Shown: positions 10,073 to 58,058 of the stretch, piece after piece
Numbering within the stretch: the first letter of the stretch is position 1
Layout: every line of letters begins with the position of its first letter
Origin: Bacteroidales bacterium
Lineage (GTDB): Bacteria > Bacteroidota > Bacteroidia > Bacteroidales > WCHB1-69
Assembly (NCBI GenBank): GCA_045132235.1
Contig: JBGURX010000021.1
Span: 8,604 to 72,603, forward strand
DNA length: 64,000 bases
Reading direction: 5' to 3'
Position numbers and translations under genes: made by a program
The notes under the pieces: model-generated
The model's input: only the letters and a program-made list of their open reading frames with translations
The model's database searches: none
Told to the model about the DNA's origin: nothing

Positions 10073-10223
10073 GATGGGAATGTTTTAATTTTTTAATAGG
10101 GCAAAAATACATTTTTTTTCGATTTCTAAAAGAAGAATTCTGATTTTTTATGTAACTTTGCCGTTGATTGTGGAATTTTGTGGAGGAATTATTAATAAAT
10201 TGTATATCAATAATTTATAAAAT

Positions 10224-43252: not shown

Positions 43253-44686
43253 TCAGGAGTTTTTCTCCTGCTCACGATGTCGCAACACCACATTCACCTG
43301 CGGGTATTTGGCTCGCAGGTGGTCGGCAACGCTCTGCGCGAAATACACCGACCGGTGCTGTCCACCCGTGCAGCCGCAGCTGACACACAGGTGCGAGAAC
43401 TGCCGCTCCAAGTAGTTGTCCACGCTCATGTCCACGATAGCGAACAGATGCTGCTTGAAAGTCTCCACCTCGGGATAGCGCTCCAAGTAGTCGATCACGC
43501 ACTGGTCGCGGCCGGTGAAGGTGCGATAGGCTTTCTCGCGTCCCGGGTTGGGCAGTGCGCGGCAGTCGAACACGAACCCGCCGCCATTGTCCGACTCATC
43601 CTCTGGAATACCTTTCTTGAACGAGAAGCTGCTCACCACTACGGTCAGTTTTCCATCCTCTCTCTTTTCGGGAGTCCATCGCCGTGCCGTGATGGCTTTC
43701 ATCACCTTCTCCAATTCCGGAACATTTATTGCAATCTTTTTATTTTCAATTAAATAGCGAAGATTTTCCACCGCTGGCGGGATGCTTTGCAGGAAATGGC
43801 TTTTCCGCTCGAAGTAGCCGCGATAGCCGTAGGCTCCCAGCACCTGCAACGCCCGGATCAGCACAAAGCCGTAATAGCGCTGCCGGAAATCCTTTGCGTC
43901 AACAGGCAGCTGTTTTTGCAGCTCCTGCAAGTAGTAATCCAACAGCTCCTCGCGCAGCTGCTCCGACAGTCCCGCCCGCGCCTGAACCAACAGCGAGGCG
44001 ACGTCATACTGCAATGCGCCTTTTCTTCCTCCTTGATAATCAATAAAATAGACATCTTCGTCTTTAATCATGATGTTCCTCGACTGGAAATCACGGAACA
44101 GGAAAAAGTCGGAGGGGGTCTCCTCAAGGTAGTCCATCAGCGTCTGAAAGTCGTTTTCCAGCAGCTGTTCGTCGAAAGGGATGTAGGTCAGTTTGAGGAA
44201 GAAATATTTGAAATAGTTGAGGTCCCACTGCATCGACTGTCGGTCGAAGGCTTCGCGGGGGTAGCACACCGAGAAGTCGAAATCTTTGCGGCCGCAAAGC
44301 TGTATGCGCACCAGCTCGTGCAGCGCCGCCTTGAAGTAGTCCACCACGTCGCTGGGCAGTTCGCCGCCGCACTCTTTCCGCCGCTTTTCCAAGTAGCTGA
44401 ACAGGGTCTCGTCGCCGAGGTCGGAGAGCAGATAGTACTGCCGGTCGTCGCTCACCGTCAGGAGTTTAGGCACGTTGATGCCTTCGCGGTAGAAGAAGTC
44501 GGTGAAGGTGAAGAAGGCCTCGTTCTCTTTCACGTCGTCGTTGAACACGCCCATCAGGGTGGTGCCGTCGGCGAGGAAGAGGCGGGTGTAGATGCGGTGC
44601 GAGCCGGACTGTGCGATGCGGCTGCTTTTAGTGACCGCCGCGGAGGTGTAGGTGGCGGCAAGGGTAATTAATTGATTGATTTCCAT
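43253..44686 (-). CDS. Fusion protein: aminoglycoside-phosphotransferase-like (APH/AmgK-like) kinase domain plus RapZ C-terminal domain
   Basis: Start moved to MEINQLITL. The kinase-like core is FRDFQSRNIMI and FIDYQG. The C-terminal half carries SSFSFKKGIP, FDCRALPNPG and CGCTGGQHRSV, a strong RapZ-C signature. Confidence 0.75.
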   Translation of the reverse strand: MEINQLITLAATYTSAAVTKSSRIAQSGSHRIYTRLFLADGTTLMGVFNDDVKENEAFFTFTDFFYREGINVPKLLTVSDDRQYYLLSDLGDETLFSYLEKRRKECGGELPSDVVDYFKAALHELVRIQLCGRKDFDFSVCYPREAFDRQSMQWDLNYFKYFFLKLTYIPFDEQLLENDFQTLMDYLEETPSDFFLFRDFQSRNIMIKDEDVYFIDYQGGRKGALQYDVASLLVQARAGLSEQLREELLDYYLQELQKQLPVDAKDFRQRYYGFVLIRALQVLGAYGYRGYFERKSHFLQSIPPAVENLRYLIENKKIAINVPELEKVMKAITARRWTPEKREDGKLTVVVSSFSFKKGIPEDESDNGGGFVFDCRALPNPGREKAYRTFTGRDQCVIDYLERYPEVETFKQHLFAIVDMSVDNYLERQFSHLCVSCGCTGGQHRSVYFAQSVADHLRAKYPQVNVVLRHREQEKNS

Positions 44687-44866
44687 TTTATTTTTGAAAG
44701 GAAGATAGGGGAACGAGACCTGTGGATTGAGCTGTTCCCCATAGATTCGTATGGTTGTTGCTTCTTGCCTGCAAAAGTACGATTTTTTCCAATAATTTTT
44801 GTATCTTTGCTGCCAAAATGTTGTGATAGACGAGAAAATCATATCATTAAAGATTCTCTATAACCC

Positions 44867-45493
44867 ATGTTGCAACCAGCACCCTTCATCGGTATTATAC
44901 GGCATCGCATCGGCATTGATGGCGACGGGGTGACCACTTTGGCGGCCTTCCACGGCTGTCCGCTGCACTGCCGCTACTGTCTGAACCCGTCCTGTCTCGG
45001 TTCGGCGGAACGGTTGCGCTGTCTGACGCCGGAGCAGCTTTACGAGGAGGTGCGCATCGACCAGCTGTACTTTCTGGCCACCGGTGGCGGGGTTTGTTTC
45101 GGCGGTGGCGAGCCGCTGCTGCGCCCCGACTACCTCATCCGTTTCCGCGAGTTGTGCGGCTCCGACTGGCAGCTCACCCTTGAAACCTCCCTCAACGTGC
45201 CGGAGGAGAACCTGCAGGCGGTGCTGCCTCATGTGAATGCCTTCATCGTGGATATCAAGGACCTGCATCCCGACATTTACCAGCAGTACACCGGCCAGCC
45301 GATCACCCGACTCCTGCGGAATTTGGAACACCTTGCGGGCCACTTCCCCACCCAGCAGGTGGTGGTGCGCGTGCCGCTCATCCCCGACTACAACACCGAC
45401 GACGACCGGGCGTGGAGCGTGGAGCAGCTGCAAGCCCACGGCTTTGAGCGTTTCGACAAGTTCACGTACCGCACGGAGGGAAACCGCCAGTAG
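44867..45493 (+). CDS. Radical SAM protein, glycyl-radical-enzyme-activase-like (208 aa)
   Basis: GIDGDGVTTLAAFHGCPLHCRYCLNP contains the CxxxCxxC cluster in a PflA/NrdG-like context. GGGEPLL is also present. Confidence 0.8.
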   Translation: MLQPAPFIGIIRHRIGIDGDGVTTLAAFHGCPLHCRYCLNPSCLGSAERLRCLTPEQLYEEVRIDQLYFLATGGGVCFGGGEPLLRPDYLIRFRELCGSDWQLTLETSLNVPEENLQAVLPHVNAFIVDIKDLHPDIYQQYTGQPITRLLRNLEHLAGHFPTQQVVVRVPLIPDYNTDDDRAWSVEQLQAHGFERFDKFTYRTEGNRQ

Positions 45494-45631
45494 GGGCGCG
45501 AAGCGGCCACTCAATATTTATTTCGCTGAATAATTTATATAATTCGCTGAAAAATAAATTGCGAAAACTATCGTTATTTCTATACCACCTCCTTCAAAAC
45601 CAACTTTTTACAAAAAAAATCCCCCGCCATT

Positions 45632-46669
45632 ATGAAACACATCCTCCTATCCATTTCCCTTTGCCTCCTCCTTGGTAGCGTTTCCGCGCAGAGCCGCAAG
45701 GATATCAGACAGTATTATTATTGGGTCAACCAAGCAGAACTGTCCATCTGCGACAGCAACTTCCAGCGGGCCTCCGACTGCTATCACACTGCTTTTACTT
45801 TCAAGAGAGCCTGCATCAGGGATGCCCATTTCGCATTTCAGCTCAACAGCATGTATCTCTACAACTTGGACCGTGCCTGCGAGGCGTTCCACTTCCTTGT
45901 GCAGGCGGGGGACAAAGCATACAACGAGTACGGCTCTTATTTGGAAGACACAACGGTCTATCCGGAGTTGTGGAATTGTATGAAGATTATATCAGATACG
46001 ACCCAATCATTAGTGGATGAGAATCTGTACAATGCTTTGAATGAAATAAGAAAAGATGACCAAAGGGTGCGGATGGCCTTTTATGAGAGCGACGAACTTG
46101 CATACGCGACCATTGGCCACACCGACAGCCTGAATTTCCAAAAAGCACAACAGATTTTCAAACAGTATAAGGATATTGATGAATATAATTCAGGGGGTGC
46201 CGTAATGATGAGTGCGGTCTTCATTCATTTTGCCAGATTGCGATTGACGACGCCCGATGTTTTTTATGAAAAGTTGGTAAAAAGTGGGAACCTTAGTGCA
46301 GCCAGTTATATGCAAAACTATGACTATTGCTACCATTCCATCTTCAAAGGTGACGACAAGACCACTTACGGCACCGACCCTTCGTACACCTATATCATCA
46401 ACAACACCTTATTTATCCGTTATCCTGACGATATTCAAAAAATCAATAAGAATCGCAAAAAGCTCAATGTGGCCGAAACGTGGGAAGATTATGTGACGAA
46501 GGTTCTTTACGTTAACCGGCACAAGGATGGATTCAGGTTCTATCCCAGGCAGTATGTGATTCGCGGCGGCGAAGCGGAGGAGGAACAGCATGAGAAAGAT
46601 GAGCGTGCCCGTTACGACAGCGGTGAAGTAAAAGGGATGTATTACGAATTAAACACCAGAGAACAATGA
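45632..46669 (+). CDS. Secreted protein of unknown function, array family A (A1, 345 aa)
   Basis: Signal peptide present. It is a paralogue of 48544-49581, sharing AQSRKxxRQYYYW.NQAEL.ICD, KINKNRKKL.VAETWED and MYYE. Confidence 0.7.
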   Translation: MKHILLSISLCLLLGSVSAQSRKDIRQYYYWVNQAELSICDSNFQRASDCYHTAFTFKRACIRDAHFAFQLNSMYLYNLDRACEAFHFLVQAGDKAYNEYGSYLEDTTVYPELWNCMKIISDTTQSLVDENLYNALNEIRKDDQRVRMAFYESDELAYATIGHTDSLNFQKAQQIFKQYKDIDEYNSGGAVMMSAVFIHFARLRLTTPDVFYEKLVKSGNLSAASYMQNYDYCYHSIFKGDDKTTYGTDPSYTYIINNTLFIRYPDDIQKINKNRKKLNVAETWEDYVTKVLYVNRHKDGFRFYPRQYVIRGGEAEEEQHEKDERARYDSGEVKGMYYELNTREQ

Positions 46670-47490
46670 AATTTGGCAAATTGTTGTTGTTTTTCGCCCT
46701 TTGGGGTGTGATTCCTATTTTCGCCCAGCGTATTGATACCGTTTGGATGGACAGCATCCCGATAGAGATGGTCTTCGTGGAGGGAGGGTCTTTTGTGCAA
46801 GGGTGCGATACGAAAGATACTTCCATTCATTGTCCACAAACGAGTACTCCAGCTCATAAAGTAGTGCTAAACGACTTTTATATAGCAAAATATGAACTGA
46901 CACGTGAACTTTATTCGGCCATAATGGGCAAAGACCCTTCCATTTGTAGTTTTGAACATCCACGCAGGTTATGTCCTGTCGAGAATGTTTCTTGGTATGA
47001 CGCACAGGCTTTCATTGACACCTTGAATGCGAGAACAGGGATGCATTTTCGTCTTCCTACCGAAGCAGAATGGGAGTATGCGGCTCGTGGTGGGAAGTAT
47101 CACAGTCCGTTCCGTTTTGCTGGCAGCCATAACATCAACGATGTGGGATGGCGTGTGGAAACAGACCCCAAAGTGAGAGGACAGGTTTGTCAATGGACGA
47201 AACCTGTGGGGCAAAAGCAGCCGAATGCATTGGGACTGTACGACATGACCTGTAATGTCAAGGAGTGGTGCAGTGATTGGTTTTCGTCAGAATATTATTC
47301 TTTGCAGAACTCATTCAAAAATCCTAAAGGTCTGGCACAAGGTGATGAAAAGGTGTGCCGTGGTGGTAGTTGGGGTGAAGGAGATATAAAGAATTGCTGG
47401 GTGTCGACCCGGAGCAAAAGCAATCCTGAAACCCATTCTCCATGTATTGGTTTCCGCCTTGCGATGGATGCCGAAGATGTTAAACAATAA
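46666..47490 (+). CDS. Secreted FGE/SUMF1 (formylglycine-generating enzyme-like, lectin fold) domain protein (B1)
   Basis: ATGA overlap with A1. VENVSWYDAQAF, RLPTEAEWEYAARGG, GLYDMTCNVKEWCSDWF, CRGGSW and IGFRL are present. The catalytic C-H-x-S-Y-C pair is absent. Confidence 0.85.
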   Translation: MKFGKLLLFFALWGVIPIFAQRIDTVWMDSIPIEMVFVEGGSFVQGCDTKDTSIHCPQTSTPAHKVVLNDFYIAKYELTRELYSAIMGKDPSICSFEHPRRLCPVENVSWYDAQAFIDTLNARTGMHFRLPTEAEWEYAARGGKYHSPFRFAGSHNINDVGWRVETDPKVRGQVCQWTKPVGQKQPNALGLYDMTCNVKEWCSDWFSSEYYSLQNSFKNPKGLAQGDEKVCRGGSWGEGDIKNCWVSTRSKSNPETHSPCIGFRLAMDAEDVKQ

Positions 47491-47501
47491 TTTTACATAT
47501 T

Positions 47502-48413
47502 ATGAAACCTAAAAACATAATTCTCGTCCTGATGGCGATGCTGCTGTTGGTTTCGGCGGCGGCGCAGCCCAAACGTTCCAAAGCGGACGTTAAAAAAGAA
47601 AAAGAACTGGTAGGCGCTTTCGTGCGGATACCCGAAAACAGCTTCACTATGCAGGATGTGTATGACGACGGCACCCTCGGGCCTGAAGTGGAGTACAAGA
47701 CGGCCGCATTTTATATGCTCGAGACGGAAGTCACGAACAAGGCTTACAACGGCTTCCTGAATGATTTGAAAGCGCAGGGGCGCACAGAAGACTACGAAAA
47801 AGCGCGCTTCCGCTCCGAGAACTGGTACACTCCGAGAAGCCACAGCGAGCTGGGGCGACAGTATTATGACAATTATCCGGCATACGACCATTATCCGGCC
47901 GTCACTGTGCCTTACGAGGGCGCATTGCTCTTCTGCCAGTGGCTTACCGAAAAGGTGGGCAATCCCGAATGGGTGTATGAGCTGCCGTCGCAAATCCACT
48001 GGGTGTGGGCAGCCAGCGGCGGGAAGGACGGTGTGCCCTACTCAATGGGCGAACCCTTTTTGACGGCAAGGGATGGTACCCCCTATTATCACTACCTGCA
48101 TATTGATGATGCGTGGATTGCCCGCACGGACAGCGGATTCCAAGTTGTGGACAATCATCCCGGCACAATGCGTACCGACTTTATTGGCAGCGATATCCCC
48201 TTTCCAGCAAAGTCGCTACGGGCGAATGAGTACGGGCTGTACAATATGTGCGGCAATGTGGCGGAGATGGTCTCCAACCCCAACCTTGCGGTGGGCGGCA
48301 GCTGGCTCGACCCCGGCTACGACATTCGCATCTACAGCACCAAGGAATACACGCAGCCCTCGCCCCAGATCGGCTTCCGTGTGATTGCCCGCTGGGTGGG
48401 GAGGAAGGATTAA
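47502..48413 (+). CDS. Secreted divergent FGE-like domain protein (B')
   Basis: Signal peptide present. AFYMLETEVTNKAY, ALLFCQWLTEKVG, YGLYNMCGNVAEMV, VGGSW and IGFRV are present. There is no Cys pair. Confidence 0.75.
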   Translation: MKPKNIILVLMAMLLLVSAAAQPKRSKADVKKEKELVGAFVRIPENSFTMQDVYDDGTLGPEVEYKTAAFYMLETEVTNKAYNGFLNDLKAQGRTEDYEKARFRSENWYTPRSHSELGRQYYDNYPAYDHYPAVTVPYEGALLFCQWLTEKVGNPEWVYELPSQIHWVWAASGGKDGVPYSMGEPFLTARDGTPYYHYLHIDDAWIARTDSGFQVVDNHPGTMRTDFIGSDIPFPAKSLRANEYGLYNMCGNVAEMVSNPNLAVGGSWLDPGYDIRIYSTKEYTQPSPQIGFRVIARWVGRKD

Positions 48414-48463
48414 AGGATGAAGAGATTAAAAGATGAAAGGATGAAAAGATGAAAGGGGATAGG
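48400..48463 (+). repeat. Purine-rich 8-nt tandem repeat (GATKAARR units) at the 3' end of B'
   Basis: GATGAAGA GATTAAAA GATGAAAG GATGAAAA GATGAAAG run from 48416-48455, flanked by further G/A-rich sequence. Confidence 0.55.
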
Positions 48464-48543
48464 TGCTTTGTCCTTCCGTGCGACTTAACAGCCCAATGAA
48501 TATAGAATTTTATGAACCTGCAACCAGATAAACCGCAATACCA

Positions 48544-49581
48544 ATGAAAAAAATCCTCTTTACCATCCTCCTCTGTTTGGTATTTTATGCACTTTCCGCG
48601 CAGAGCCGCAAGCAAGTCCGGCAGTACTACTACTGGATTAATCAGGCCGAGCTGGCCATCTGCGATGATAATCTACAGCTTGCGGATTCGCTCTATACCC
48701 GAGCTTTCAGCATCAAGGAACCGCTGGCACGCGAAATGCGTACCGCCTACTGGGTGGCCGTTCAAACCGAAAACCACGAGAAAATCTTGCAGATAGCAAA
48801 ATGCCGGATTGAATTGGGTGATGAGGGATTGGCTAATTCATATCAGTATATGTCGCCGCACTTTGACACGGTTGTTTACCAGCAATTGCTCGACATCGAG
48901 GCTCAAACGATTAAAACTTACTGTGTGAAATTTGACACGATCTTGGAGCATATCAATGAGCGTGACCAACGATACCGAATGCAAGGTATGGGGCGCTCAC
49001 CGGAGCAGTTTGCATTGGATGATGAGAACCGTAAACTCATCAAGCAGTTTTACCGTGAATATCCTGACTTCAACGAATGCGTGGCGGGATTTTACTATAT
49101 GGGAATGTTGGGTGTTGTATTACTCCATGCCGTGCAGACGGACCACTATGACTTGCAACCACTGCTTCGCAAGAAAGTGATGGCTGGGATTTTCCCTGCC
49201 CAGCAATATATGGAACTGGAAGATGTATGGGCACAAATACATTCCTCACGAAACGAAATGTACGGTGAAGGAATGGGAAGCGAAAACATCTATTATATCG
49301 GGAATACCTTGTTTGTAACACGTCCCGAAAACCTCAAGCAGATCAACAAGAACAGAAAAAAGCTGGGGGTTGCCGAAACATGGGAGGATGGCGTTAAAAA
49401 AATGATATGGGAATGCAAGCATAAAAACTCCTGCATTACCGGAAGCAGACATATCATAGTATTCGGCGATGAAGATGACGATGCCGCCGAGGTAGCGCGC
49501 TTGAAACAGGAAATCGATGCCGAGCACGCCAAAGGCGACTTTCATCGGATGTATTATGAAAGAAGTTCTAAAAATGAATAA
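48544..49581 (+). CDS. Secreted protein of unknown function, array family A (A2, 345 aa)
   Basis: Paralogue of A1, with the same length and the same N- and C-terminal motifs. Confidence 0.7.
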   Translation: MKKILFTILLCLVFYALSAQSRKQVRQYYYWINQAELAICDDNLQLADSLYTRAFSIKEPLAREMRTAYWVAVQTENHEKILQIAKCRIELGDEGLANSYQYMSPHFDTVVYQQLLDIEAQTIKTYCVKFDTILEHINERDQRYRMQGMGRSPEQFALDDENRKLIKQFYREYPDFNECVAGFYYMGMLGVVLLHAVQTDHYDLQPLLRKKVMAGIFPAQQYMELEDVWAQIHSSRNEMYGEGMGSENIYYIGNTLFVTRPENLKQINKNRKKLGVAETWEDGVKKMIWECKHKNSCITGSRHIIVFGDEDDDAAEVARLKQEIDAEHAKGDFHRMYYERSSKNE

Positions 49582-49584
49582 CCG

Positions 49585-50442
49585 ATGAAACGAGCGCTCC
49601 TTATTTTATTGATACTCATTTTGTATTTCCCTGCTTCTTCTCAAAAAAACAAAGTGGTCTCAATTAAAATCAATGACAAAGTTAAAATCGACATGGTTTA
49701 CATTCCTGCAGACACCTTTGTGCGAAAGAATTTCTATGGCGACACCTGCCGCCATTACCACTTAATCCCAATCGTAGCTGAAGGCGCCTATAATGGTTAT
49801 GACACCATTGTGCTTTCAGGTTACTACATTTCAAAATATGAGGTCACACAGTTGGTTTATGAAACGGTGATGCACAAGAATCCGTCGTGGTACAACAAAG
49901 ACAACACTCCAGTATTGCGATATCAAGAATTTGATTACAGAGTATGTCCGGTAGAACGTCTTTCCTGGTATGACGCGCAGGAGTTTGTGGATTCATTGAG
50001 TTCGCTCACGGGCCGGCATTTCCGCCTGCCCACGGAAGCGGAATGGGAGTATGCCGCACGCGCCAAACATTACAATGACCGTTTCAGCGGTGGCGACATT
50101 TTTGAAGAATTGGCTTGGTCATGGGATAACGTGGGACATAATTCGCATCCTGTTGGAATACTGAAACCAAACGCTTTCGGGCTATACGATATGAGCGGCA
50201 ATGTGGAGGAGTGGTGCAGCGACTGGTTTTCTTCCTACTATTATCAATCCGACACGCTGTATGTTAATCCGACCGGTCCATCGGAAGGACATCTGAAAGT
50301 GCTCCGTGGTGGAAGCTGGGGCGTGTATCCCAATCGCGCTTGCGAACTGGATACGCGCAGAGGTGAAAACCCTTCAGTAAGAACCAATCAGGCGTCCGGC
50401 ATACGGTTGGTGATGGATGCCAAAGAAATCAAACAAGAATAA
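49585..50442 (+). CDS. Secreted FGE/SUMF1-like domain protein (B2)
   Basis: Starts 3 nt after A2. VERLSWYDAQEF, RLPTEAEWEYAARA, GLYDMSGNVEEWCSDWF, LRGGSW and GIRL are present. There is no catalytic Cys pair. Confidence 0.85.
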   Translation: MKRALLILLILILYFPASSQKNKVVSIKINDKVKIDMVYIPADTFVRKNFYGDTCRHYHLIPIVAEGAYNGYDTIVLSGYYISKYEVTQLVYETVMHKNPSWYNKDNTPVLRYQEFDYRVCPVERLSWYDAQEFVDSLSSLTGRHFRLPTEAEWEYAARAKHYNDRFSGGDIFEELAWSWDNVGHNSHPVGILKPNAFGLYDMSGNVEEWCSDWFSSYYYQSDTLYVNPTGPSEGHLKVLRGGSWGVYPNRACELDTRRGENPSVRTNQASGIRLVMDAKEIKQE

Positions 50443-50498
50443 TCCCCCACCCTTTATGAAACACCTCCTCCTTTCCTTGGCACCCTAATCCGCATTGT

Positions 50499-51380
50499 AT
50501 GAAAAAATTTCTTCTTTTTTACGTAGTCCTGCTGTGTGCCTATTGCGCATTCCCCCAAACGGAGCAATGGAGGAAATACTGTGTGCTTCAGTATCAAGCC
50601 AAGGCGGCCTTTGACAACAACGACTACAGCAATGCCGCCCAATTCTATCAGCAGATGGACTCCGTATATGGACTCATTGTGGATTACAAGGACATGAGGA
50701 ACTTTTGCATTGCGGCGGCAATGTGCAGTGATACGAACTCGGTGCAACGTTCACTTCTCGCCCTCACGAAATATAAATGCTTCGACATCGGATTCTTGGT
50801 CAATCCCATTTTCAATTCATACAAAAAGAAAGATTGGTGGGCGGAATGTGATTCCCTTTCCCATATCTACGGGCATAAAAACCAGTGGTACATCGACACG
50901 CTAAGGAAAATTCAAATTGCGGATTCTGCGGTGCGATATAAGTTCATTCATGCAACCGATATAACGGTTCGGGACTCCATGAGAGCCCTTATGGCGGTGA
51001 TGGATTCTGTCAACACCCTCAAATTGGAAACGCTCATCAAAGAACAGGGGTTGCCCACGTTCCGGAATGTGGGCTATGAGGGATTTTATAGTGCCTATAT
51101 CATTATGATGCATATCAATTCAGAACTGCAAGATTCTCTTATCGAAAAATTCATCCCATTGATGGAAACCGGGGAGGTGCCCCGTGACAAGATGGCATAC
51201 CTGATTGACCGCAGTCTAATTAGAAAGAAACTGCCGCAACGATATGGCTGTCAGATTTATCGAAGTGGGAAATCACAGCCGATTGAAGATATAGACCACC
51301 TCAATGAACGCCGGGAGGCAATGGGACTCTGTCCGGTGGATATTGAAGATTTGAAAACAAGGATTGTGGAGTATGAGTGA
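50499..51380 (+). CDS. Secreted protein of unknown function, distantly A-like (A3, 293 aa)
   Basis: Signal peptide present. C-terminal NERREAMGLCPVDIED parallels NKNRKKLxVAETWED of A1 and A2. The middle region QGLPTFRNVGYEGFYSAYIIMMH recalls DUF6624-type proteins (from memory). Confidence 0.65.
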   Translation: MKKFLLFYVVLLCAYCAFPQTEQWRKYCVLQYQAKAAFDNNDYSNAAQFYQQMDSVYGLIVDYKDMRNFCIAAAMCSDTNSVQRSLLALTKYKCFDIGFLVNPIFNSYKKKDWWAECDSLSHIYGHKNQWYIDTLRKIQIADSAVRYKFIHATDITVRDSMRALMAVMDSVNTLKLETLIKEQGLPTFRNVGYEGFYSAYIIMMHINSELQDSLIEKFIPLMETGEVPRDKMAYLIDRSLIRKKLPQRYGCQIYRSGKSQPIEDIDHLNERREAMGLCPVDIEDLKTRIVEYE

Positions 51381-51398
51381 ACAACCCAAACTATATTT

Positions 51399-52277
51399 AT
51401 GAAACAACTGATTTTCATCCTGACGGCAATTCTGCTGGGGTTTACAGCATCTGCCCAATCCCAACCCACCCAATACTCACAAAGCGGCGGTGGCATTTGG
51501 TTTGAGGTGAGAAATGACACCTCGAACCCCTGCCGCTATACCGAGGACAATAAGATTTATCAGGCCGACAGGGAGTTCACATTCGAGTTCCACTATTTCG
51601 ACCCACAGGGCAAGGAACGCTATATGAGGTATGAACGTGTTCCTCATCAAGGGTATGAACTCACGGAAAATGGCGACACCTCTTATTACACCTACTATCG
51701 TCCGGGATTTTCCTTCTCGGATGTTTTTGACGCCTCCGATTCCTGCATCAACCGCTACCTGTTGAAAGTCGCCTGTACGGGTAAAGGGTTCCGTAAAGAT
51801 TACAACCAAACCGTGGAGGAGTTTTACTTTTTCTTGGATGGACAGACATCAAGATTGCCCTCGTCAATGTCCGGCATTGTGGAAAACGAACGGAATTTGT
51901 GGATGCATCCAAACAGATCTTGCCTGTTCCGCATCCTCGAACTCAATCCATTTCCGTATATCCAATACCCTGTCAAAAAAAGTAAAACTTGGAGATGGCG
52001 GCTCTCCATCGGCAGTCAGTGGGGCGACGAGCGATGGAAGACTTGGACGGGTGGCACCGTCAACAAGTACAGATACAAAATTACCGATACGGATTGCGAA
52101 GTGGTCACGCCCATGGGCACGCTTTCGTGCGTGAAGGTGGTGGCCGTGGCCAAGAGCCGCATCGGGAAAACTTATCTCACAGCATACTATAACGACACCT
52201 ACGGTTTTGTGAAAATGGACAACGCCAACATCGACGGCTCGCGGTTGGAGATTGACTTGGTGGGGACGAATTTCTGA
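51399..52277 (+). CDS. Secreted protein of unknown function (C, 292 aa)
   Basis: Signal peptide, Trp/Tyr-rich beta-type sequence and no recognised motif. It starts 18 nt after A3. Confidence 0.6.
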   Translation: MKQLIFILTAILLGFTASAQSQPTQYSQSGGGIWFEVRNDTSNPCRYTEDNKIYQADREFTFEFHYFDPQGKERYMRYERVPHQGYELTENGDTSYYTYYRPGFSFSDVFDASDSCINRYLLKVACTGKGFRKDYNQTVEEFYFFLDGQTSRLPSSMSGIVENERNLWMHPNRSCLFRILELNPFPYIQYPVKKSKTWRWRLSIGSQWGDERWKTWTGGTVNKYRYKITDTDCEVVTPMGTLSCVKVVAVAKSRIGKTYLTAYYNDTYGFVKMDNANIDGSRLEIDLVGTNF

Positions 52278-52289
52278 TGGGATGGAGCG

Positions 52290-52691
52290 TCACACCAGAC
52301 TGATGGACTCCAGCTCTTTGGTCAGGGATCGGATGCCCTGTTGGATTTTCTCCGCCTGCTTGCGCCGGGGTTTGTGCACTCCGGCAGCATAGTGCCAAAG
52401 CTGCCGCTCGTTGATGCCTGTGATTCGACTTAAAGCGGCTTTGGTAAAGATTCCGCTATAGTAATTGATAAAAGTGGCCGTATCAATACGGAACTTCAAT
52501 TCAAAATCGCCAGTGAGCTTGTCGCACGGATTGGAATTGTCCTCCAGATAAAGCTCCACAGCCTCTTGCATATTGCGCTCCACCTCTTGAATGTTGCTGC
52601 CCACCGTGATAATCGGCGCTCCTTCAATAAAGGCGCTCAAATTTTTCCCTGCAAATTCCACAATCACTTCCACGATTTTCATATTGTTCAT
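52290..52691 (-). CDS. hicB: Type II antitoxin HicB family (with C-terminal HTH)
   Basis: N-terminal HicB/UPF0150-like fold (VEFAGKNLSAFIEGAPIITVGSNIQEVERNMQEAVELYLED). It lies 4 nt downstream of hicA. Confidence 0.75.
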   Translation of the reverse strand: MNNMKIVEVIVEFAGKNLSAFIEGAPIITVGSNIQEVERNMQEAVELYLEDNSNPCDKLTGDFELKFRIDTATFINYYSGIFTKAALSRITGINERQLWHYAAGVHKPRRKQAEKIQQGIRSLTKELESISLV

Positions 52692-52695
52692 CTTT

Positions 52696-52890
52696 TTATT
52701 TTTCTTTTAATCCCGCCTGACTCAGTATGTTATAGTATGTCCCTTTCTCAATGCCCTTACTCCCATGATTGGGTACAACTACAATTCGTCCCTCCTTTTC
52801 AAACTTCATGTGGCTGCCCTTTTGCGCCTTTAAAACAAAGCCATTCTTCTTTAGTAAGTCAATTACAAATTTCACTGATTTGTAGCTCAT
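52696..52890 (-). CDS. hicA: Type II toxin HicA (mRNA interferase)
   Basis: Start moved to MSYKSVKFVIDLLKKNGF. KGSHMKF and VPNHGSK..GTYYNILSQAGL are the HicA signature. A TATATTTG box (minus strand) lies at about 52915. Confidence 0.8.
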   Translation of the reverse strand: MSYKSVKFVIDLLKKNGFVLKAQKGSHMKFEKEGRIVVVPNHGSKGIEKGTYYNILSQAGLKEK

Positions 52891-53031
52891 CGTTGTAGAG
52901 TTAGTAAGAGGCTGCAAATATAGTAAAAAAATGAATACTTTTATGCATAGTTTGAAAAATATCAAAAAATTTCATTCCCCTTCAATAACAGTATCAAAAA
53001 TAATACTATTTTTGCAGTGTAAGAATAGAAT

Positions 53032-53445
53032 ATGGAACAGATAATTGCAATGGTGGACTGGTGCGGAAAAAACTACGCATCCTATATCAACGACCCGCGC
53101 ATTGGTGGGCTGGTGATCTCAACAGGCAAAACCTATGAAAAACTCCAACAAGAAACTGAAGAGGGATTGAGATTCCATCTGGAGGGCTGTCTTGCCGACG
53201 GCGACCCCATTCCCGAGGCCATCCGCAACGGCAACTACGAACTTGTATACGAAAAACGGATGAGTGCCATCCTGCATGAGGCTCAACAATACACCACTCT
53301 CGCAGCTTTGAGCCGGGTGACAGGCATCAAGCATGCACAGCTATCGCATTATGCCAATGCCGTAGCACAACCCCGCCCCAAGCAAAGAGCCCGCATCGTA
53401 GAGGGTCTTCATCAGATTGGAAATCATTGCCTCTCCATGCTATAA
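53032..53445 (+). CDS. Orphan HicB-family antitoxin paralogue
   Basis: The domain order matches 52290-52691: N-terminal VDWCGKNYASYINDPRIGGLVISTGKTYEKLQQE and C-terminal HTH LAALSRVTGIKHAQLSHYA. There is no adjacent hicA. Confidence 0.7.
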   Translation: MEQIIAMVDWCGKNYASYINDPRIGGLVISTGKTYEKLQQETEEGLRFHLEGCLADGDPIPEAIRNGNYELVYEKRMSAILHEAQQYTTLAALSRVTGIKHAQLSHYANAVAQPRPKQRARIVEGLHQIGNHCLSML

Positions 53446-53504
53446 CACGTCCCTTCCCCCCAAGATTTTCGCTTTCATTTTCGTTTTTAAAAAGAAAAAC
53501 AAAA

Positions 53505-54059
53505 ATGAAACTCCGCCACATCATCCTTTGTCTTTTGGTGGCGGCTGCAACTTCGGCGGCCGGACAGCACCTTACCCTGAAAAACTACCAAAAGAAAGCC
53601 CTGCCACAGAAATTGATCATGGTTGGAAACGGGCTGTATTGCGACTCCGAGCCCATCACCAACCTTGATTGGCGCGAGTACCTGTATTGGCTGGAACGAA
53701 TATACGGAAAAGAGTCGGAGCCATACCGTGCCGCTCTGCCCGATGAGGAGATTCTCCGGCAGCAGCTGCCCGACAGTCTCGCGAGGTACTACCTGCGCAA
53801 CCCAGTGTTCAACGATTTCGCCGTCTTGGGCGTGTCGCCAGAGCAAGCCCGTGCCTACTGCCAATGGCGCACCGACCGCGTGGCGGAATATATTCTGGTG
53901 TGCATGAAAATTCGTGAATGGGACCCCGACGCTCCCTTCTTCCTTGCGGACTACGACAATCCGAAAAATCTGCAATTTCTCCACTTTTTTCTTCCACAAG
54001 AGGGCATGGAAACCCGATATGGCTTTGTGTGCTTTGCGATGTGGAAAACTGAAAACTGA
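53505..54059 (+). CDS. Secreted truncated FGE/SUMF1-like domain protein (184 aa)
   Basis: Start moved to MKLRHIILCLL. It is a paralogue of 4363-4920, sharing NLDWREYLYWLERIYGKES, VLGVSPEQARAYCQWRTDRV and RYGFVCFA. Confidence 0.8.
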   Translation: MKLRHIILCLLVAAATSAAGQHLTLKNYQKKALPQKLIMVGNGLYCDSEPITNLDWREYLYWLERIYGKESEPYRAALPDEEILRQQLPDSLARYYLRNPVFNDFAVLGVSPEQARAYCQWRTDRVAEYILVCMKIREWDPDAPFFLADYDNPKNLQFLHFFLPQEGMETRYGFVCFAMWKTEN

Positions 54060-54105
54060 GAATTGAAAACTGAAAATTGAAAGGTGAAAAGTGGATGGTG
54101 GAAGG
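54042..54105 (+). repeat. Heptamer tandem array (TGAAAAY-type, 9 units)
   Basis: TGGAAAAC TGAAAAC TGAGAAT TGAAAAC TGAAAAT TGAAAGG TGAAAAG TGGATGG TGGAAGG. The array starts inside the last codons of the preceding gene. Confidence 0.75.
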
Positions 54106-54218
54106 ATTATTTTTTCAGATGTGAAGGGATAAAAACTCAGAAATAAAGGAGAAAATCGAAAAGTTTCGAGGGGGTTCACATTTTGGGTGTGAAGGGATAA
54201 ATTTTCAAAAAAAAGATG

Positions 54219-54226
54219 TATATTTG
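54219..54226 (+). promoter_or_regulatory. Bacteroidota -7 promoter box (TATATTTG)
   Basis: Exact TAnnTTTG match, ending only 5 nt before the ATG at 54232. This implies either a near-leaderless transcript or a different true promoter. Confidence 0.4.
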
Positions 54227-54231
54227 TCGCC

Positions 54232-56595
54232 ATGAAAAGATTAACGGCGATCTTGTTTTGGCTTCTGCTCGGCTGCGGCACAGTGTTTGCCCAGCAGGAA
54301 ACCATCACGGTCAGCGGCCGGGTGACCGGCACCGACACGTTGGGGGTGCTTGGTGCGCATATAACAGTCCACAACGGGCATGAGTATGTCGGGATGACCA
54401 CTACCAATGGACATGGGTTCTTCACTCTCTCGCTGCCACAGTCGGAAAACGACTATACGCTCACATTCTGGAGCTGGGGTGCCGAGGTCAAAACCATTAC
54501 ACTGCCCCCCGAATCCACCCAATCGCTAAACGTGACACTGGAGTTGCCATCACAAGGATATGTGAAAGGGAAGACATACTATTCAGCAGACGGTATCGCC
54601 ACCCGAACGGTGTACGTAGTTGATAATGAAAACGAAGTGCAAGTGCTGGCAGACCTCCTGTACTTCTTCCCGGAGTTCTCCATCTCAAAGGAAGGTATTT
54701 TGTCGTACGAAGGAAATGAAAATACACTAATATTATTTGATAATCAACCCATTACAGTAGAAGACCTTGAGCAACTTTTTCTGCCACCCCATACCCGTGT
54801 ACAATTGGAAGTTCTCCATTCTTCCCAAGAATGCTGCCAAGACTGCATGGCCGCCACAATTCATATTACCTCTCACCCACTACAGGACGCTGGCTTTGGT
54901 GGCAATATTTCCGCACAGTATGGCTTTTTTCATTTTGCCAATGCCGATGTCAATCTATGGCTTTCCAAAAAGAAATTCGATCTTATTTTTCAATATAATA
55001 TTGATTATGAGAATGATATATTTAAGGGGGACTTTGAATATCAGCAGAAAACCACAGCAAATACAGCAACAACGGAGTTCCAAAACCAATGCCGGCAGTT
55101 GCGCAACGACTTCCGCCTGAACGGCTTTTTCCTGCTGAATGACCGAAACAGTCTGGAGGTGAACGTGCGGGCGAAGGTGCCGCGCCTACTGGCGGACCAT
55201 GCCTACGACAACAGTGCCGACGGAGAGCGATGGCAGTCGCTGGAAAACGGTTTCACCGGCAGGCGCTGGCAGCAGGAATCTGTGGAGGGCATGATTCGTT
55301 ACCGCCACACCATCCAGCCCTACCTGTCGCACCGTCCCAACAGCTCCTCTTTTTCGTTAGACTGTTCATTTTCAAAAGCGTGGGAGCGGCGCGAAGAGAC
55401 CTACCGCGAAGACTTTTACCATGAAAACTTGATCTGGGCACAGTCACAGTCCAGCGAAGGCCCGTTGAGTGCCTCCCTGAAGGCGGATTTCACCATCCAA
55501 CGGAAACACTCAATCTGGCAAGTGGGCGCGCAGGCGTTGTACCGCCGCAACGGCTTCAGCCAGAACCTGACGGCAGCCGCCGACAGTGTGCCGGCCGCCT
55601 TCCAGCCACTCCAGTACCATCTCACCCACCAAGAGGTTGTGCCCTCGGTTTATGTAAATTACATTTTCGCAAAACATTATTTCTTCTTGAAGGCAGGACT
55701 TCAGAGCGAATACATCCGGTCATGGCACGATGCTTCCGATGCGTTGCAGTCCCACATCATTTTTGCGCCCAACCTGCAACTCACTTTCCGCATCACGCCG
55801 CACCAGTCGGTTGACCTTGAATACCGCTGCCATGCCGAGCGTCCCGACTATGCAGAGCTGACCTCGTACCGGTACCTGCTGGATGCCAACACCTATCTGC
55901 AAGGCAATCCGTCACTCCGTCCGGAGATTGTCAACAGTGTGGCGGCAAGCTACCATTTGAGCACAAAGTTTGTACAATTGCATGCGGATTTGTTTTATCG
56001 ACACACCGCCCGTTATATTACACAAATCGCTCGTTTTCAAGAAAATGCCATCTCAATCGAATACGCCAACATCGCCCATGATGCCAAAGCTGGATTAGAT
56101 TTCCATTTGTTAGCAGGGATCCTTTACCACTGCTATGCGACATTCAACTCAAGCACCTACTATCGGCATGCCTCTGCCATGTTAGATGGAGTGGACTGGT
56201 CGAATCGCGGATGGACGAGCGACAATTCAATAGAATTTCATTATAGTCCGGTACGAAGATACAAGTATTATTTGATGCTTCACGCAGACTATCACATCGT
56301 TACGCCGCAATTTCATCCGCAGTTCACCACCTCGCTCAGCCACTACCTGAACCTCAAAATCAGCCACATCTTCTTTTACAGACTGAATGTTTCGCTGTCG
56401 GCCACAGATGTGTTCAACACCGCTCGCTGGGCTGCCCATTTCGATAATGGAACTTACAGCCTGATGCACCGCAGCACGCACAAAAGCCGGATGGTATGGA
56501 TTAGCATTGCCTACCGGTTTGGTGATTATCACACCCAACTTTGGAAAGACACAGGGAACCCGCGTTCCAACCGACTGATTTCAATGGGATTCTGA
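54232..56595 (+). CDS. Outer-membrane beta-barrel family protein with N-terminal carboxypeptidase-regulatory-like domain (TonB-dependent-receptor-like, 787 aa)
   Basis: Signal peptide present. The N-terminal domain reads ITVSGRVTGTDTLGVLGAHITV...TNGHGFFTL. A long alternating beta-strand region ends in ...RMVWISIAYRFG. Confidence 0.8.
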   Translation: MKRLTAILFWLLLGCGTVFAQQETITVSGRVTGTDTLGVLGAHITVHNGHEYVGMTTTNGHGFFTLSLPQSENDYTLTFWSWGAEVKTITLPPESTQSLNVTLELPSQGYVKGKTYYSADGIATRTVYVVDNENEVQVLADLLYFFPEFSISKEGILSYEGNENTLILFDNQPITVEDLEQLFLPPHTRVQLEVLHSSQECCQDCMAATIHITSHPLQDAGFGGNISAQYGFFHFANADVNLWLSKKKFDLIFQYNIDYENDIFKGDFEYQQKTTANTATTEFQNQCRQLRNDFRLNGFFLLNDRNSLEVNVRAKVPRLLADHAYDNSADGERWQSLENGFTGRRWQQESVEGMIRYRHTIQPYLSHRPNSSSFSLDCSFSKAWERREETYREDFYHENLIWAQSQSSEGPLSASLKADFTIQRKHSIWQVGAQALYRRNGFSQNLTAAADSVPAAFQPLQYHLTHQEVVPSVYVNYIFAKHYFFLKAGLQSEYIRSWHDASDALQSHIIFAPNLQLTFRITPHQSVDLEYRCHAERPDYAELTSYRYLLDANTYLQGNPSLRPEIVNSVAASYHLSTKFVQLHADLFYRHTARYITQIARFQENAISIEYANIAHDAKAGLDFHLLAGILYHCYATFNSSTYYRHASAMLDGVDWSNRGWTSDNSIEFHYSPVRRYKYYLMLHADYHIVTPQFHPQFTTSLSHYLNLKISHIFFYRLNVSLSATDVFNTARWAAHFDNGTYSLMHRSTHKSRMVWISIAYRFGDYHTQLWKDTGNPRSNRLISMGF

Positions 56596-56630
56596 TGGAA
56601 GGTGAAAATTGAAAATTGAGAATTGAAAAT
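56596..56630 (+). repeat. Heptamer tandem array (5 units) directly after the OMP stop codon
   Basis: TGGAAGG TGAAAAT TGAAAAT TGAGAAT TGAAAAT. The first unit is identical to the last unit of the 54042-54105 array. Confidence 0.75.
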
Positions 56631-56708
56631 TTTACTTACTTTTGCAAAATCATTTTAGGGATGATTTCCTGAAAGATTGTCTGCTGTAAATTATTAAAAT
56701 AGAAAAAT

Positions 56709-58058
56709 ATGAAACTGAAAATCAGACTGATTGTGATGAACTTCCTGCAGTATGCCGTGTGGGGAGCTTATCTGACATGTATGGGCAAATACTTGGGCAA
56801 ATGCGGTCTCGGCAGCGACATCGGATTGTTCTACGCCATGCAGGGTATCGTTTCGCTGTTCATGCCCGCCCTGATGGGCATCATCGCCGACCGCTGGATC
56901 CAAGCCCAAAAAACGCTGGGAATCTGCCACATCCTGGCGGGTGGTGCGATGATTGCAGCCTGCTTCTACGGGCTGGCGAATCCCAACCCCAACTTTATCG
57001 GACTGTTCACCCTCTATTCCATCAGTGTGGCCTTCTACATGCCTACCATTGCATTGTCCAACTCCGTAGCTTACAATGCATTGGAGAACGGCGGATTGGA
57101 TGCGGTGAAGGACTTTCCGCCCATCCGCGTGTTCGGCACTATCGGTTTCATCTGCGCCATGTGGCTGGTGGACCTCGTTCATTTTCCTGACGGATTCCTT
57201 GCCTCCTGTCTGTCGAATCCCGCCGACTTTCTGTGGGCACAACACGAGCCGGGGATGGCTGTACAGGCTTCCAACACCCCGTTCCAGTTCATGCTGAGCG
57301 GTATTCTGGGCATCCTGCTGGGACTATACTCCTTCACGCTCCCCCAGTGCGCCATCAACAAAGGAGAAAAGAAAAGTTTTGTGGAAGCTCTTGGCTTGCA
57401 GGCATTTTCTCTTTTCAAACAGAAGAGAATGGCCATCTTCTTCATCTTCTCGATGTTGTTGGGTGCCGCCTTGCAAATCACCAACGGCTTTGCCACCCCG
57501 TTTATCTCGTCCTTCGCCGCCGACCCCGCCTTCGCAGACACCTTCGGCGTGAAATACTCGGTCATCATCTACTCCATCTCCCAGATTGCGGAGACCCTCT
57601 GCATCCTGCTCATCCCCTTCTTCCTCAAGCGTTTCGGTATCAAAAAGGTGATGCTGATGGCCATGATTGCATGGTTCTTCCGTTTCGGATTGTTCGGCAT
57701 CGGCGATACGGGCAGCATGGTGTGGGCCATCATCCTCTCGATGATCGTATATGGATTTGCCTTTGACTTTTACAACATCTCCGGCTCCCTGTTTGTGAAT
57801 CAGGAGACCGACCCGAGCATCCGCTCGTCGGCACAAGGCTTGTTCATGATGATGACCAACGGCTTCGGCGCCACCATCGGCACGTTAGGCGCGCAGGCCA
57901 TCGTCAATCGGTTCTGCGCATGGAACGAGGCGGGACTGCTGGTAGGCACCGAAGGCACCGGCGGCTGGCCGGCCGTATGGTTCATCTTCGCCGGCTACTC
58001 GCTGGTCGTGGCCATCCTGTTCGCCATCTTCTTCCAATACAAACACGAGAGAAAGTAG
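56709..58058 (+). CDS. MFS nucleoside:H+ symporter family permease (NupG/XapB-like)
   Basis: 12-TM protein. The N-terminus RLIVMNFLQYAVWGAYLT is typical of the Nuc_H_symport family. A TACTTTTG box lies at 56637-56644. Confidence 0.85.
   Translation: MKLKIRLIVMNFLQYAVWGAYLTCMGKYLGKCGLGSDIGLFYAMQGIVSLFMPALMGIIADRWIQAQKTLGICHILAGGAMIAACFYGLANPNPNFIGLFTLYSISVAFYMPTIALSNSVAYNALENGGLDAVKDFPPIRVFGTIGFICAMWLVDLVHFPDGFLASCLSNPADFLWAQHEPGMAVQASNTPFQFMLSGILGILLGLYSFTLPQCAINKGEKKSFVEALGLQAFSLFKQKRMAIFFIFSMLLGAALQITNGFATPFISSFAADPAFADTFGVKYSVIIYSISQIAETLCILLIPFFLKRFGIKKVMLMAMIAWFFRFGLFGIGDTGSMVWAIILSMIVYGFAFDFYNISGSLFVNQETDPSIRSSAQGLFMMMTNGFGATIGTLGAQAIVNRFCAWNEAGLLVGTEGTGGWPAVWFIFAGYSLVVAILFAIFFQYKHERK

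Follow-up and report, generated by a model that had tools for sequence, protein, structure and literature searches.

The 64,000-nucleotide (nt) stretch of Bacteroidales contig JBGURX010000021.1 analysed here (the window) carries an array of seven genes, A1, B1, B', A2, B2, A3 and C. The array is a duplicated and rearranged set of periplasmic accessory proteins, the families of which belong to grasp-with-spasm clusters in related Bacteroidales. It very probably forms part of the accessory set associated with graspetides. We further propose that it specifies periplasmic modules that would bind or inactivate graspetides, most likely for protection, a mechanism that we regard as plausible, if tentative, when taken as a whole. 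A preliminary description of this DNA, made from its letters and ORF translations, had found no known context or characterised system for the array. That view no longer holds: we infer that the A family is DUF6624/'cluster 23', a common graspetide accessory family, and in relatives A, A-B pairs and A3 adjoin or sit within grasp-with-spasm clusters.

The A proteins provide the link. A1 and A2 are paralogues, as had been proposed (both 345 amino acids (aa), 31% identity over the full length, E 4e-48), and neither has a match in Pfam. A3 scores 34 bits against Pfam PF20329 (DUF6624), for which the cut-off is 27. BLAST is blind to the relationship of A3 to A1 and A2, but profile–profile comparison detects it: in hhalign, the A-family profile aligns with A3 with 98.4% probability (E 7.9e-15, 274 columns). 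Because this alignment spans the whole length, A1, A2 and A3 form one superfamily, in which A3 is a plain DUF6624 member and A1 and A2 are remote members. The DUF6624 similarity raised tentatively in the preliminary description was thus correct. A word-indexed search with A1 returned only 29 related clusters, all unnamed, and a profile built from these found 1197 clusters at E <= 1e-3 among 1.84 billion representatives. The A family, with its 1197 clusters, is large, and it is very divergent: the mean column identity among 51 sampled diverse members is 12%, and only 2 of the 51 reach DUF6624 in Pfam.

Four residues, D143, Q144, H199 and R275, are near-invariant across the superfamily (51 diverse members), and the close A family additionally conserves R147, D165, N168, N274, K277 and E282-W284. 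The conserved motifs of A1 are DDQRVR (143-147), TDSLN (164-168), H199 and NKNRKK (273-278). The AlphaFold2 (AF2) model of A1 is confident and mostly helical (predicted local distance difference test (pLDDT) score 88.8, predicted template-modelling (TM) score (pTM) 0.85), and Foldseek searches with it against PDB and BFVD gave nothing below E 0.1. The first helices of A give weak matches to consensus tetratricopeptide repeats (TPRs) at profile positions 42-100 in a hidden Markov model (HMM) search of PDB sequences. Cys40 of A was considered as a catalytic or modified residue and dropped, because A3 has Phe at that position.

Published surveys connect this family with graspetides. The uncharacterised 'cluster 23' family is present in nearly all Bacteroidetes loci that combine ATP-grasp and SPASM genes ('branch 5'; Makarova et al. 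2022, PMC8939145); it conserves His, Asp and Arg, and many of its members have a signal peptide. The first block of its published alignment contains the DQxxR...D motif, as in the A family. In these loci a small 'LPL' protein is always encoded upstream of the SPASM gene, and the genes for graspetide precursors, possibly with those for other parts, need not lie near the ATP-grasp gene (PMC8939145). One group of graspetides, which has HlyD and an NHLM-type ATP-binding cassette (ABC) exporter as well, includes DUF6624 in 63.6% of cases (2026 study, PMC13097080).

The gene context of the A family agrees. We collected about 40 loci from species-representative genomes, metagenome contigs and look-ups of individual homologues (designated L004, L005 and so on; some are duplicate records), nearly all of them from metagenome-assembled genomes of rumen or herbivore-gut Bacteroidales. 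Open reading frames (ORFs) were called, clustered and searched with custom family HMMs; the scan used the close A-family alignment, the broad one being too divergent. In at least ten loci, A, A-B or A3 lies beside or inside a grasp-with-spasm cluster for peptides made by the ribosome and modified after translation (RiPPs). The components of these clusters in related Bacteroidales are ATP-grasp, small LPL, SPASM, peptidase-ABC exporter, HlyD and TolC, and the exporters have a leader peptidase domain of their own. A-family genes neighbour the ATP-grasp maturase in L014, L017, L024, L031, L032, L035, L036, L039 and L046, and fragments do so in L026. In L014, L017 (twice), L024, L031 and L039, the final A, B or A3 gene stands 9-35 nt upstream of the ATP-grasp gene, which is followed by an ORF of ~60 aa and then a SPASM-domain gene; the ~60-aa ORFs of these clusters read MKTKKLIPLEY.... 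In L017 and L046 the gene immediately before the maturase is of A3 type, and in L035 A overlaps the start of the maturase gene.

In L014 both maturases exceed the NCBIfam equivalog cut-offs for the grasp-with-spasm system: the ATP-grasp protein scores 261 bits against TIGR04192 (cut-off 230) and the SPASM protein 286 bits against TIGR04193 (cut-off 175). Scores were also obtained for an ABC exporter of bacteriocin type in L014 and for HlyD and TolC in L031, and HMMs derived from these clusters served to recognise the grasp-with-spasm genes of the other loci. B is most clearly placed inside a RiPP cluster in L046 (7709-16454), where the peptidase-ABC exporter and HlyD enclose an A fragment and B; A3, ATP-grasp and SPASM come next. 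When four distant A-family members were sampled without regard to context, three lay beside grasp-with-spasm genes (L032, L035 and L036) and one, marine, was alone. In L014, between SPASM gene and exporter (7587-10367), there are genes for a DUF4932 protein and for another RiPP maturase of the radical SAM/SPASM type (TIGR04463-like, E 1e-60); as it is present inside this cluster, DUF4932 belongs to the graspetide accessory repertoire.

In the window, by contrast with these related loci, the array is an orphan, as no biosynthetic or export genes were found there. Searches with related-locus proteins (tblastn) detected no homologue of ATP-grasp, SPASM, ABC, HlyD, LytTR or sigma/DUF2807 proteins in the 64 kb, the sole match being one of 40 residues between DUF4932 N-termini and the N terminus of B'. 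The 45 kb upstream of the island that contains the array, and the 7 kb downstream of it, thus include no maturase or exporter gene. Full arrays without a maturase within 10 kb also occur in L004, L018, L021 and L022.

A and B form a recurring pair. A is directly followed by B in 17 pairs at 13 loci, so their adjacency is conserved beyond this genome, and the translational coupling noted earlier is likewise conserved, with the B start overlapping the A stop (ATGA) in most of the 17 pairs. The A-B array is more than chance, as the same pair recurs in other genomes. Pairwise identities of A proteins and of their partner B proteins correlate (Pearson 0.88, Mantel p ~2e-4, 14 complete pairs), and A1-type genes go with B1-type, A2-type with B2-type. 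The A-B module has therefore been inherited and duplicated as a unit, as the preliminary description had held for the two copies in the window. A is also found without B, followed by an ATP-grasp, DUF4932, A3 or sigma70/DUF2807 gene, or as tandem A-A fusions.

Array content, copy number and order differ between close relatives, with up to five A-type copies per locus. L004, for example, shares near-identical A2-B2, A3, C and D (a gene downstream of the array; Table 1) with the window but has the order A-B-A-A-B-A-B-C-A'-OMP-A3-C (OMP, outer-membrane protein). Individual A genes are themselves mosaic. The first ~540 nt of A1 have 60-76% nt identity to L014, whereas the rest of A1 and B1 have 98-100%, except for a short divergent patch (63-82%) at the A tail and B signal peptide. 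The 5' half of A2 has 61-96% nt identity to L004, against 99-100% for its 3' half together with B2. In line with this mosaicism, B is more conserved than A within a clade (91-98% versus 74-89% aa identity). The 5' half of A is thus undergoing exchange or diversification on an otherwise fixed module.

Other genes recur beside arrays in relatives. A 620-640-aa fusion of extracytoplasmic function (ECF)-type sigma70 regions 2 and 4 with DUF2807 is found in L005 (6100-7998), L043, L044 and L018, and the order in which it recurs (A, sigma/DUF2807, OMP_b-brl_3 barrel, B') is reminiscent of a signalling unit at the cell surface; the fusion was not found in the window. Upstream of many arrays (L005, L007, L016-L019, L026, L028, L040, L041 and L053), the opposite strand encodes membrane-anchored LytTR proteins (~355-400 aa), and a SprB-like protein with a type IX secretion system (T9SS) C-terminal domain is often near LytTR-flanked arrays.

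The B proteins have the fold of formylglycine-generating enzymes (FGEs), as recognised previously from their motifs: PF03781 matches B1 at 4.5e-47, B' at 1.2e-23 and B2 at 1.4e-40. B1 and B2 are paralogues (42% identity, E 1e-66), to both of which B' is distantly related (E 5e-4 and 6e-6). Among solved structures, B1 is closest to the Treponema variable protein TvpA (2y3c, 2.4e-24) and next to true FGEs. The PF03781 domain is present, but an identity as true FGE was rejected, because the two copper-binding catalytic cysteines are not. GEGD--IKNC of B1 aligns with LCHDSYC of Streptomyces coelicolor FGE, the first catalytic Cys being replaced, and B2 and B', read from their sequences, also lack the Cys pair; across nine B sequences there is no invariant Cys in the catalytic segment. 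The B proteins are non-catalytic members of the FGE fold, which supports the non-enzymatic use allowed for in the preliminary description.

Three other identities were set aside. GldJ, GldK and PorK, lipoproteins of gliding and the T9SS, were rejected, as the NCBIfam scores fall below cut-off (B1 against GldK, 113 bits, cut-off 350; B' and D against GldJ, 56 and 54 bits (E 1.4e-14 for D), cut-off 458) and there is no lipobox Cys before the mature N terminus. A TvpA-like variable protein of a diversity-generating retroelement was rejected because no template/variable repeat (TR/VR) pair is present in 44000-58000, where the only repeats are paralogous gene segments of 72-79% identity; no reverse transcriptase was seen among the annotated genes of the window. 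A split enzyme of helical A and FGE-like B was weighed because EgtB joins a DinB helical bundle to an FGE domain, and was dropped, A having no DinB-type fold match and one invariant His only.

The B'-type cluster was found in five loci, and the gene that precedes B' in relatives is in most cases one for sigma70/DUF2807 or for an outer-membrane barrel. The first 40 residues of B' (47502-47618; signal peptide plus ~20) are 65-70% identical to the N termini of DUF4932 proteins in other arrays (L005 11972-13504, L011 7704-9215), which are otherwise unrelated to B'. This MKPKN...VSAAAQ leader is also present on some A-family proteins (P0002, P0026-P0028), and 5' ends seem to be shared or exchanged among unrelated cassette genes.

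All seven array products are predicted to be exported, which bears out the earlier assignment of signal peptides. The prediction was made from the layout of the N termini, that is, the n-region, the Kyte-Doolittle core and the position of Gln. The seven products, D and the downstream barrel each have a K/R-containing n-region and a 10-residue hydrophobic core (Kyte-Doolittle 2.6-3.8), followed by a small residue and Gln at 20-22, a layout that, in the array products, fits Bacteroidota type-I signal peptides. Because the products would be Sec-exported and graspetide maturases are cytoplasmic, A and B can meet the peptide only after its export or entry.

On this basis we propose the following mechanism. 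Translational coupling would supply A and B in fixed proportion, and each A-B pair would capture or inactivate one particular modified peptide in the periplasm. The fast-changing 5' half of A would set the peptide recognised, and binding or hydrolysis would fall to the conserved DUF6624 core (DQxxR, DxxN, His, Arg) together with the FGE-fold partner, itself conserved. A cell with an orphan multi-copy array would in this way be shielded from graspetides that kin or competitors make in the rumen. Several copies, rearrangement, persistence without biosynthetic genes and a variable part confined to one half of A are the traits that specific protection would predict, through binding or inactivation of particular peptide variants, among them variants from other strains. 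We take the signal peptides, the lack of a maturase, the orphan arrays, the variable copy number, the mosaicism, the co-diversification of A and B and the low G+C content as signs of protection or recognition rather than biosynthesis. Of the functions offered in the preliminary description, that of orphan protective or immunity-type proteins stays the most plausible, given graspetide-linked families that here stand without biosynthetic genes. The FGE-fold proteins that serve as non-enzymatic immunity proteins in tandem arrays (Lopez et al. 2021) are a precedent that fits B. The invariant polar residues of the core hint, speculatively, that A may do more than bind, for example hydrolyse cross-links. 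A more specific version, in which A-B is a polymorphic periplasmic defence, the recombining 5' half of A picks the peptide, the core and B sequester it or open its ester or amide cross-links, and orphan arrays are acquired protection against the peptides of rumen neighbours, is conceivable although we consider it doubtful.

Several points weigh against protection. A often occurs without B, so B is not an obligatory partner. The near-invariance of D143, Q144, H199 and R275 at 12% mean identity would fit an enzyme better than a pure binder. 'Cluster 23' has been read as 'predicted auxiliary extracellular enzymes' (PMC8939145), and DUF6624 has been called a possible new biosynthetic enzyme (PMC13097080). 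Our equation of the A family with 'cluster 23' is drawn from motif, description and gene context, not from direct sequence comparison. The source genome could hold a biosynthetic cluster outside the window, and C also occurs alone in Saprospiraceae and in housekeeping contexts. The main rival is A (with B) as an enzyme of graspetide maturation or tailoring that trims or modifies the peptide in the periplasm after export, with the cluster located elsewhere in the genome. This is the published interpretation (PMC8939145, PMC13097080). In its favour are the conservation of D, Q, H and R across the whole A superfamily, the overlap of A with the ATP-grasp start in L035 and its spacing of 9-35 nt in several loci, and the finding that precursors and possibly other parts are encodable away from ATP-grasp (PMC8939145). 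We nevertheless judge it fairly unlikely. Several arrays have no maturase or exporter within 10 kb, and the window array has none over the distances given above; up to five A copies with mosaic 5' halves point to diversifying recognition rather than housekeeping tailoring; and the exporters already carry a leader peptidase domain.

Protection could also be directed at another adversary or serve another partner. The preliminary description had named periplasm-acting effectors, and B might then act as Tsi3 does against those of type VI secretion systems (T6SSs). FGE-fold Tsi3 proteins are non-enzymatic immunity proteins in tandem divergent arrays; in the survey that describes them, 84% were in tandem groups, in Proteobacteria only, at a similarity of E < 1e-50 (Lopez et al. 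2021, bioRxiv 10.1101/2021.05.21.445229). This precedent, the predicted periplasmic location of all products and the position of an island of lower G+C next to a toxin-antitoxin module would suit such a role. It is very unlikely here, however, because no VgrG, Hcp, PAAR, Rhs, DUF4123 or Tse3 gene is present in the loci with precomputed Pfam annotation or in the annotated parts of the window, the reported Tsi3 homologues are confined to Proteobacteria, and the genes with which B is linked are A and those for RiPP export; as adversaries, T6SS effectors thus find no support. We give still less credence to A-B as a toxin–immunity pair, in which A would be an antibacterial protein exported by Sec and B would confer immunity to it in the periplasm. 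In gene order and ATGA coupling, A and B are like effector–immunity pairs, A varies faster than B, and FGE-fold immunity proteins exist, but A frequently lacks B (A-ATP-grasp, A-A3, tandem A-A fusions), has no known toxin domain or fold match and carries no release or delivery domain such as the T9SS C-terminal domain. Finally, A and B might bind peptides or glycans and feed trans-envelope signalling with no protective or catalytic role. Consistent with sensing are the LytTR membrane regulators upstream of arrays in at least eight loci, the recurring A, sigma70/DUF2807, outer-membrane barrel, B' order, and the binding scaffolds that A, through its weakly TPR-like region, and B, through its FGE/C-type-lectin fold, both offer. 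It is improbable all the same, as the window has neither sigma factor nor LytTR gene beside the array, and sensing explains multi-copy mosaic arrays no better than protection does. Anti-phage defence was rejected, eight proteins giving no PADLOC match at E <= 1.

Several known systems come close to the array. A resembles cluster 23/DUF6624 in its signal peptide, its DQxxR...D motif and its conserved His and Arg, and the A genes of relatives do so in standing beside ATP-grasp, LPL and SPASM genes and a peptidase-ABC/HlyD exporter. A1 and A2 differ in having an extra N-terminal helical (weakly TPR-like) region and in scoring below the Pfam threshold; their signal peptides are of type I and those of cluster 23/DUF6624 are of the lipoprotein type. 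They also differ in being tandemly amplified, paired with an FGE-fold gene and detached from biosynthetic genes. B is like Tsi3, by description, in having an FGE fold without catalytic cysteines, a periplasmic location and several divergent copies per locus, and unlike it in having no T6SS or Tse3-like gene nearby, in occurring in Bacteroidales rather than Proteobacteria, and in being interleaved with A genes and linked to RiPP export genes. The array shares its A/A3 and OMP_b-brl_3 barrel families, and its lineages, with the grasp-with-spasm system (TIGR04192/TIGR04193; branch 5); related loci are complete, whereas the window has no ATP-grasp, LPL, SPASM, exporter or recognisable precursor genes. 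Orphan arrays of bacteriocin or effector immunity genes, such as the acquired interbacterial defence islands of Bacteroidales, are of a comparable kind. The array is like these in its multi-copy, variable, small envelope proteins, its detachment from weapon genes and its atypical base composition. It differs from them in having no recombinase, in having the FGE fold as its only known immunity family, and in its presumed adversary, a RiPP rather than a T6SS effector.

The component families, the graspetide link of DUF6624/cluster 23 and FGE-fold immunity are already published. What appears to be new is that A and B form a coupled module, tandemly amplified in herbivore-gut Bacteroidales, that this module is found within graspetide clusters as well as in orphan arrays, and that the 5' half of A is mosaic; we found no description of the module, of its orphan and in-cluster occurrence or of mosaic A in the literature located. 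Graspetide clusters are abundant in Bacteroidota, their products have no known biological role, and cluster 23/DUF6624 is their commonest accessory family. To this we add that members of the family are secreted, amplified, mosaic and paired with a binding-type FGE fold, and can persist without biosynthetic genes, observations that together point to self-protection or cross-protection. If the polymorphic defence described above were true, it would be the first function for DUF6624/'cluster 23', contradicting the published guess of a biosynthetic enzyme, and FGE-fold immunity would extend from T6SS effectors to RiPPs. If A or A-B protects against, binds or hydrolyses the peptide, graspetides would be weapons of gut communities, with immunity traded separately; if A-B is instead a maturation enzyme, the result would be a routine extension of known RiPP biology. 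Protection is in any case a testable alternative to the assumption of a biosynthetic enzyme for a very common RiPP accessory family.

Table 1 Genes and remnants of the array, its island and the HicA block (positions in the window)
Feature	Position	Strand	Description
A1	45632-46669	+	Secreted, 345 aa; helical N-terminal region (weakly TPR-like) and DUF6624-like domain
B1	46666-47490	+	Secreted non-catalytic FGE-fold protein; ATGA overlap with A1 stop
B'	47502-48413	+	Divergent secreted FGE-fold protein; N-terminal half GldJ-like
A2	48544-49581	+	Paralogue of A1, 345 aa
B2	49585-50442	+	Paralogue of B1; starts 3 nt past A2
A-type gene-start remnant	50438-50476	+	39 nt, 79% copy of 45614-45652; encodes only MKHLLLSLAP and a stop
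A3	50499-51380	+	Secreted DUF6624 protein, distant A-superfamily member
C	51399-52277	+	Secreted all-beta protein, YmcC/LolA-like open barrel fold
HicA partner	52290-52691		133 aa
HicA toxin gene	52696-52965	-	Pfam 1.2e-16
Inverted paralogue of 133-aa HicA partner	53032-53445		53-nt inverted arms at 52387-52439 and 53302-53354
D	53505-54059	+	Secreted, 184 aa; N-terminal half only of FGE/GldJ fold; island membership probable, less certain
Outer-membrane barrel	54232-56595	+	CarboxypepD_reg and OMP_b-brl_3, TonB-dependent-receptor-like; island membership probable, less certain

The seven co-directional ORFs on the + strand were all recovered at exactly the coordinates first reported, with the same intergenic distances (-4 (the ATGA overlap of A1 and B1), 11, 130, 3, 56 and 18 nt). 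The island that they form with the downstream genes (45.6-56.6 kb) has a G+C content of ~0.47, against ~0.53 in the flanks, which consist of housekeeping genes (phosphoglycerate kinase, nucleoside symporter, uracil-DNA glycosylase and others). That the array lacks regulator, transporter and mobility genes is true within 45632-52277; directly downstream, however, come a HicA toxin gene with its partners and the OMP_b-brl_3 barrel gene. The HicA block (52290-53445) separates the array from D and the barrel gene, and the gene for the 133-aa HicA partner adjoins D in L004. The remnant between B2 and A3, a copy of the A1 start codon and the region upstream of it, is a decapitated A-type start and marks a past rearrangement at a module boundary. 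D is a stable form of 182-190 aa, and the same short form adjoins arrays in L004 and L018.

The barrel matches PF14905 at 1.8e-38, a family listed among those associated with graspetides (pfam14905; PMC8939145, Table 1), and the same barrel family adjoins arrays in L004, L018, L022, L043, L044 and L052. Protein C has no Pfam match, DUF3108_like being reached at E 0.14 only. Its AF2 model is confident and all-beta (pLDDT 90.2), and the best fold matches are the YmcC-like exported proteins BF2203 and BDI_3050, and LolA. In Foldseek, the C model matches BDI_3050 (4fvs) at 9.2e-6, BF2203 (3fzx) at 1.2e-5 (TM 0.50 on target) and YmcC (2in5) at 3.7e-3. C is thus like the YmcC/DUF3108/LolA-like barrels in fold (Foldseek probability 1.0, E ~1e-5), the matched YmcC-like entries being annotated, one as a putative exported protein and the other as a putative lipoprotein, both of Bacteroidales, and unlike them in being ~80 residues longer with sequence similarity under the Pfam threshold. 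The C family is broad (174+ homologous clusters), has an invariant block (E162, N163, N166, W168, H170, P171, R173 and E181) and recurs after B or A3 in related loci; C may act as an enzyme or a carrier, and do so independently of the array.

Promoter and terminator scans gave counts at chance level, and no Bacteroidetes -7 box is present upstream of A1, A2 or A3. Repeats of the GAAAAYTGAAAAYTGAGAATTGAAAA type (14 nt) flank the barrel gene, just before it at 54044-54097 and just after it at 56604-56629, and repeats of the GATGAAAGG type fill the spacer between B' and A2 (48414-48460). Both types might be binding sites for regulators, LytTR regulators and the sigma factor being encoded nearby in relatives. 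At the upstream edge, a gene for a 208-aa radical SAM protein resembling glycyl-radical-enzyme activases (44867-45493) ends exactly 138 nt before the first A gene. The same short gene stands exactly 138 nt before the first A gene in L018 (7862-8488), which has a second copy, and it may represent either a conserved flank or part of the island itself.

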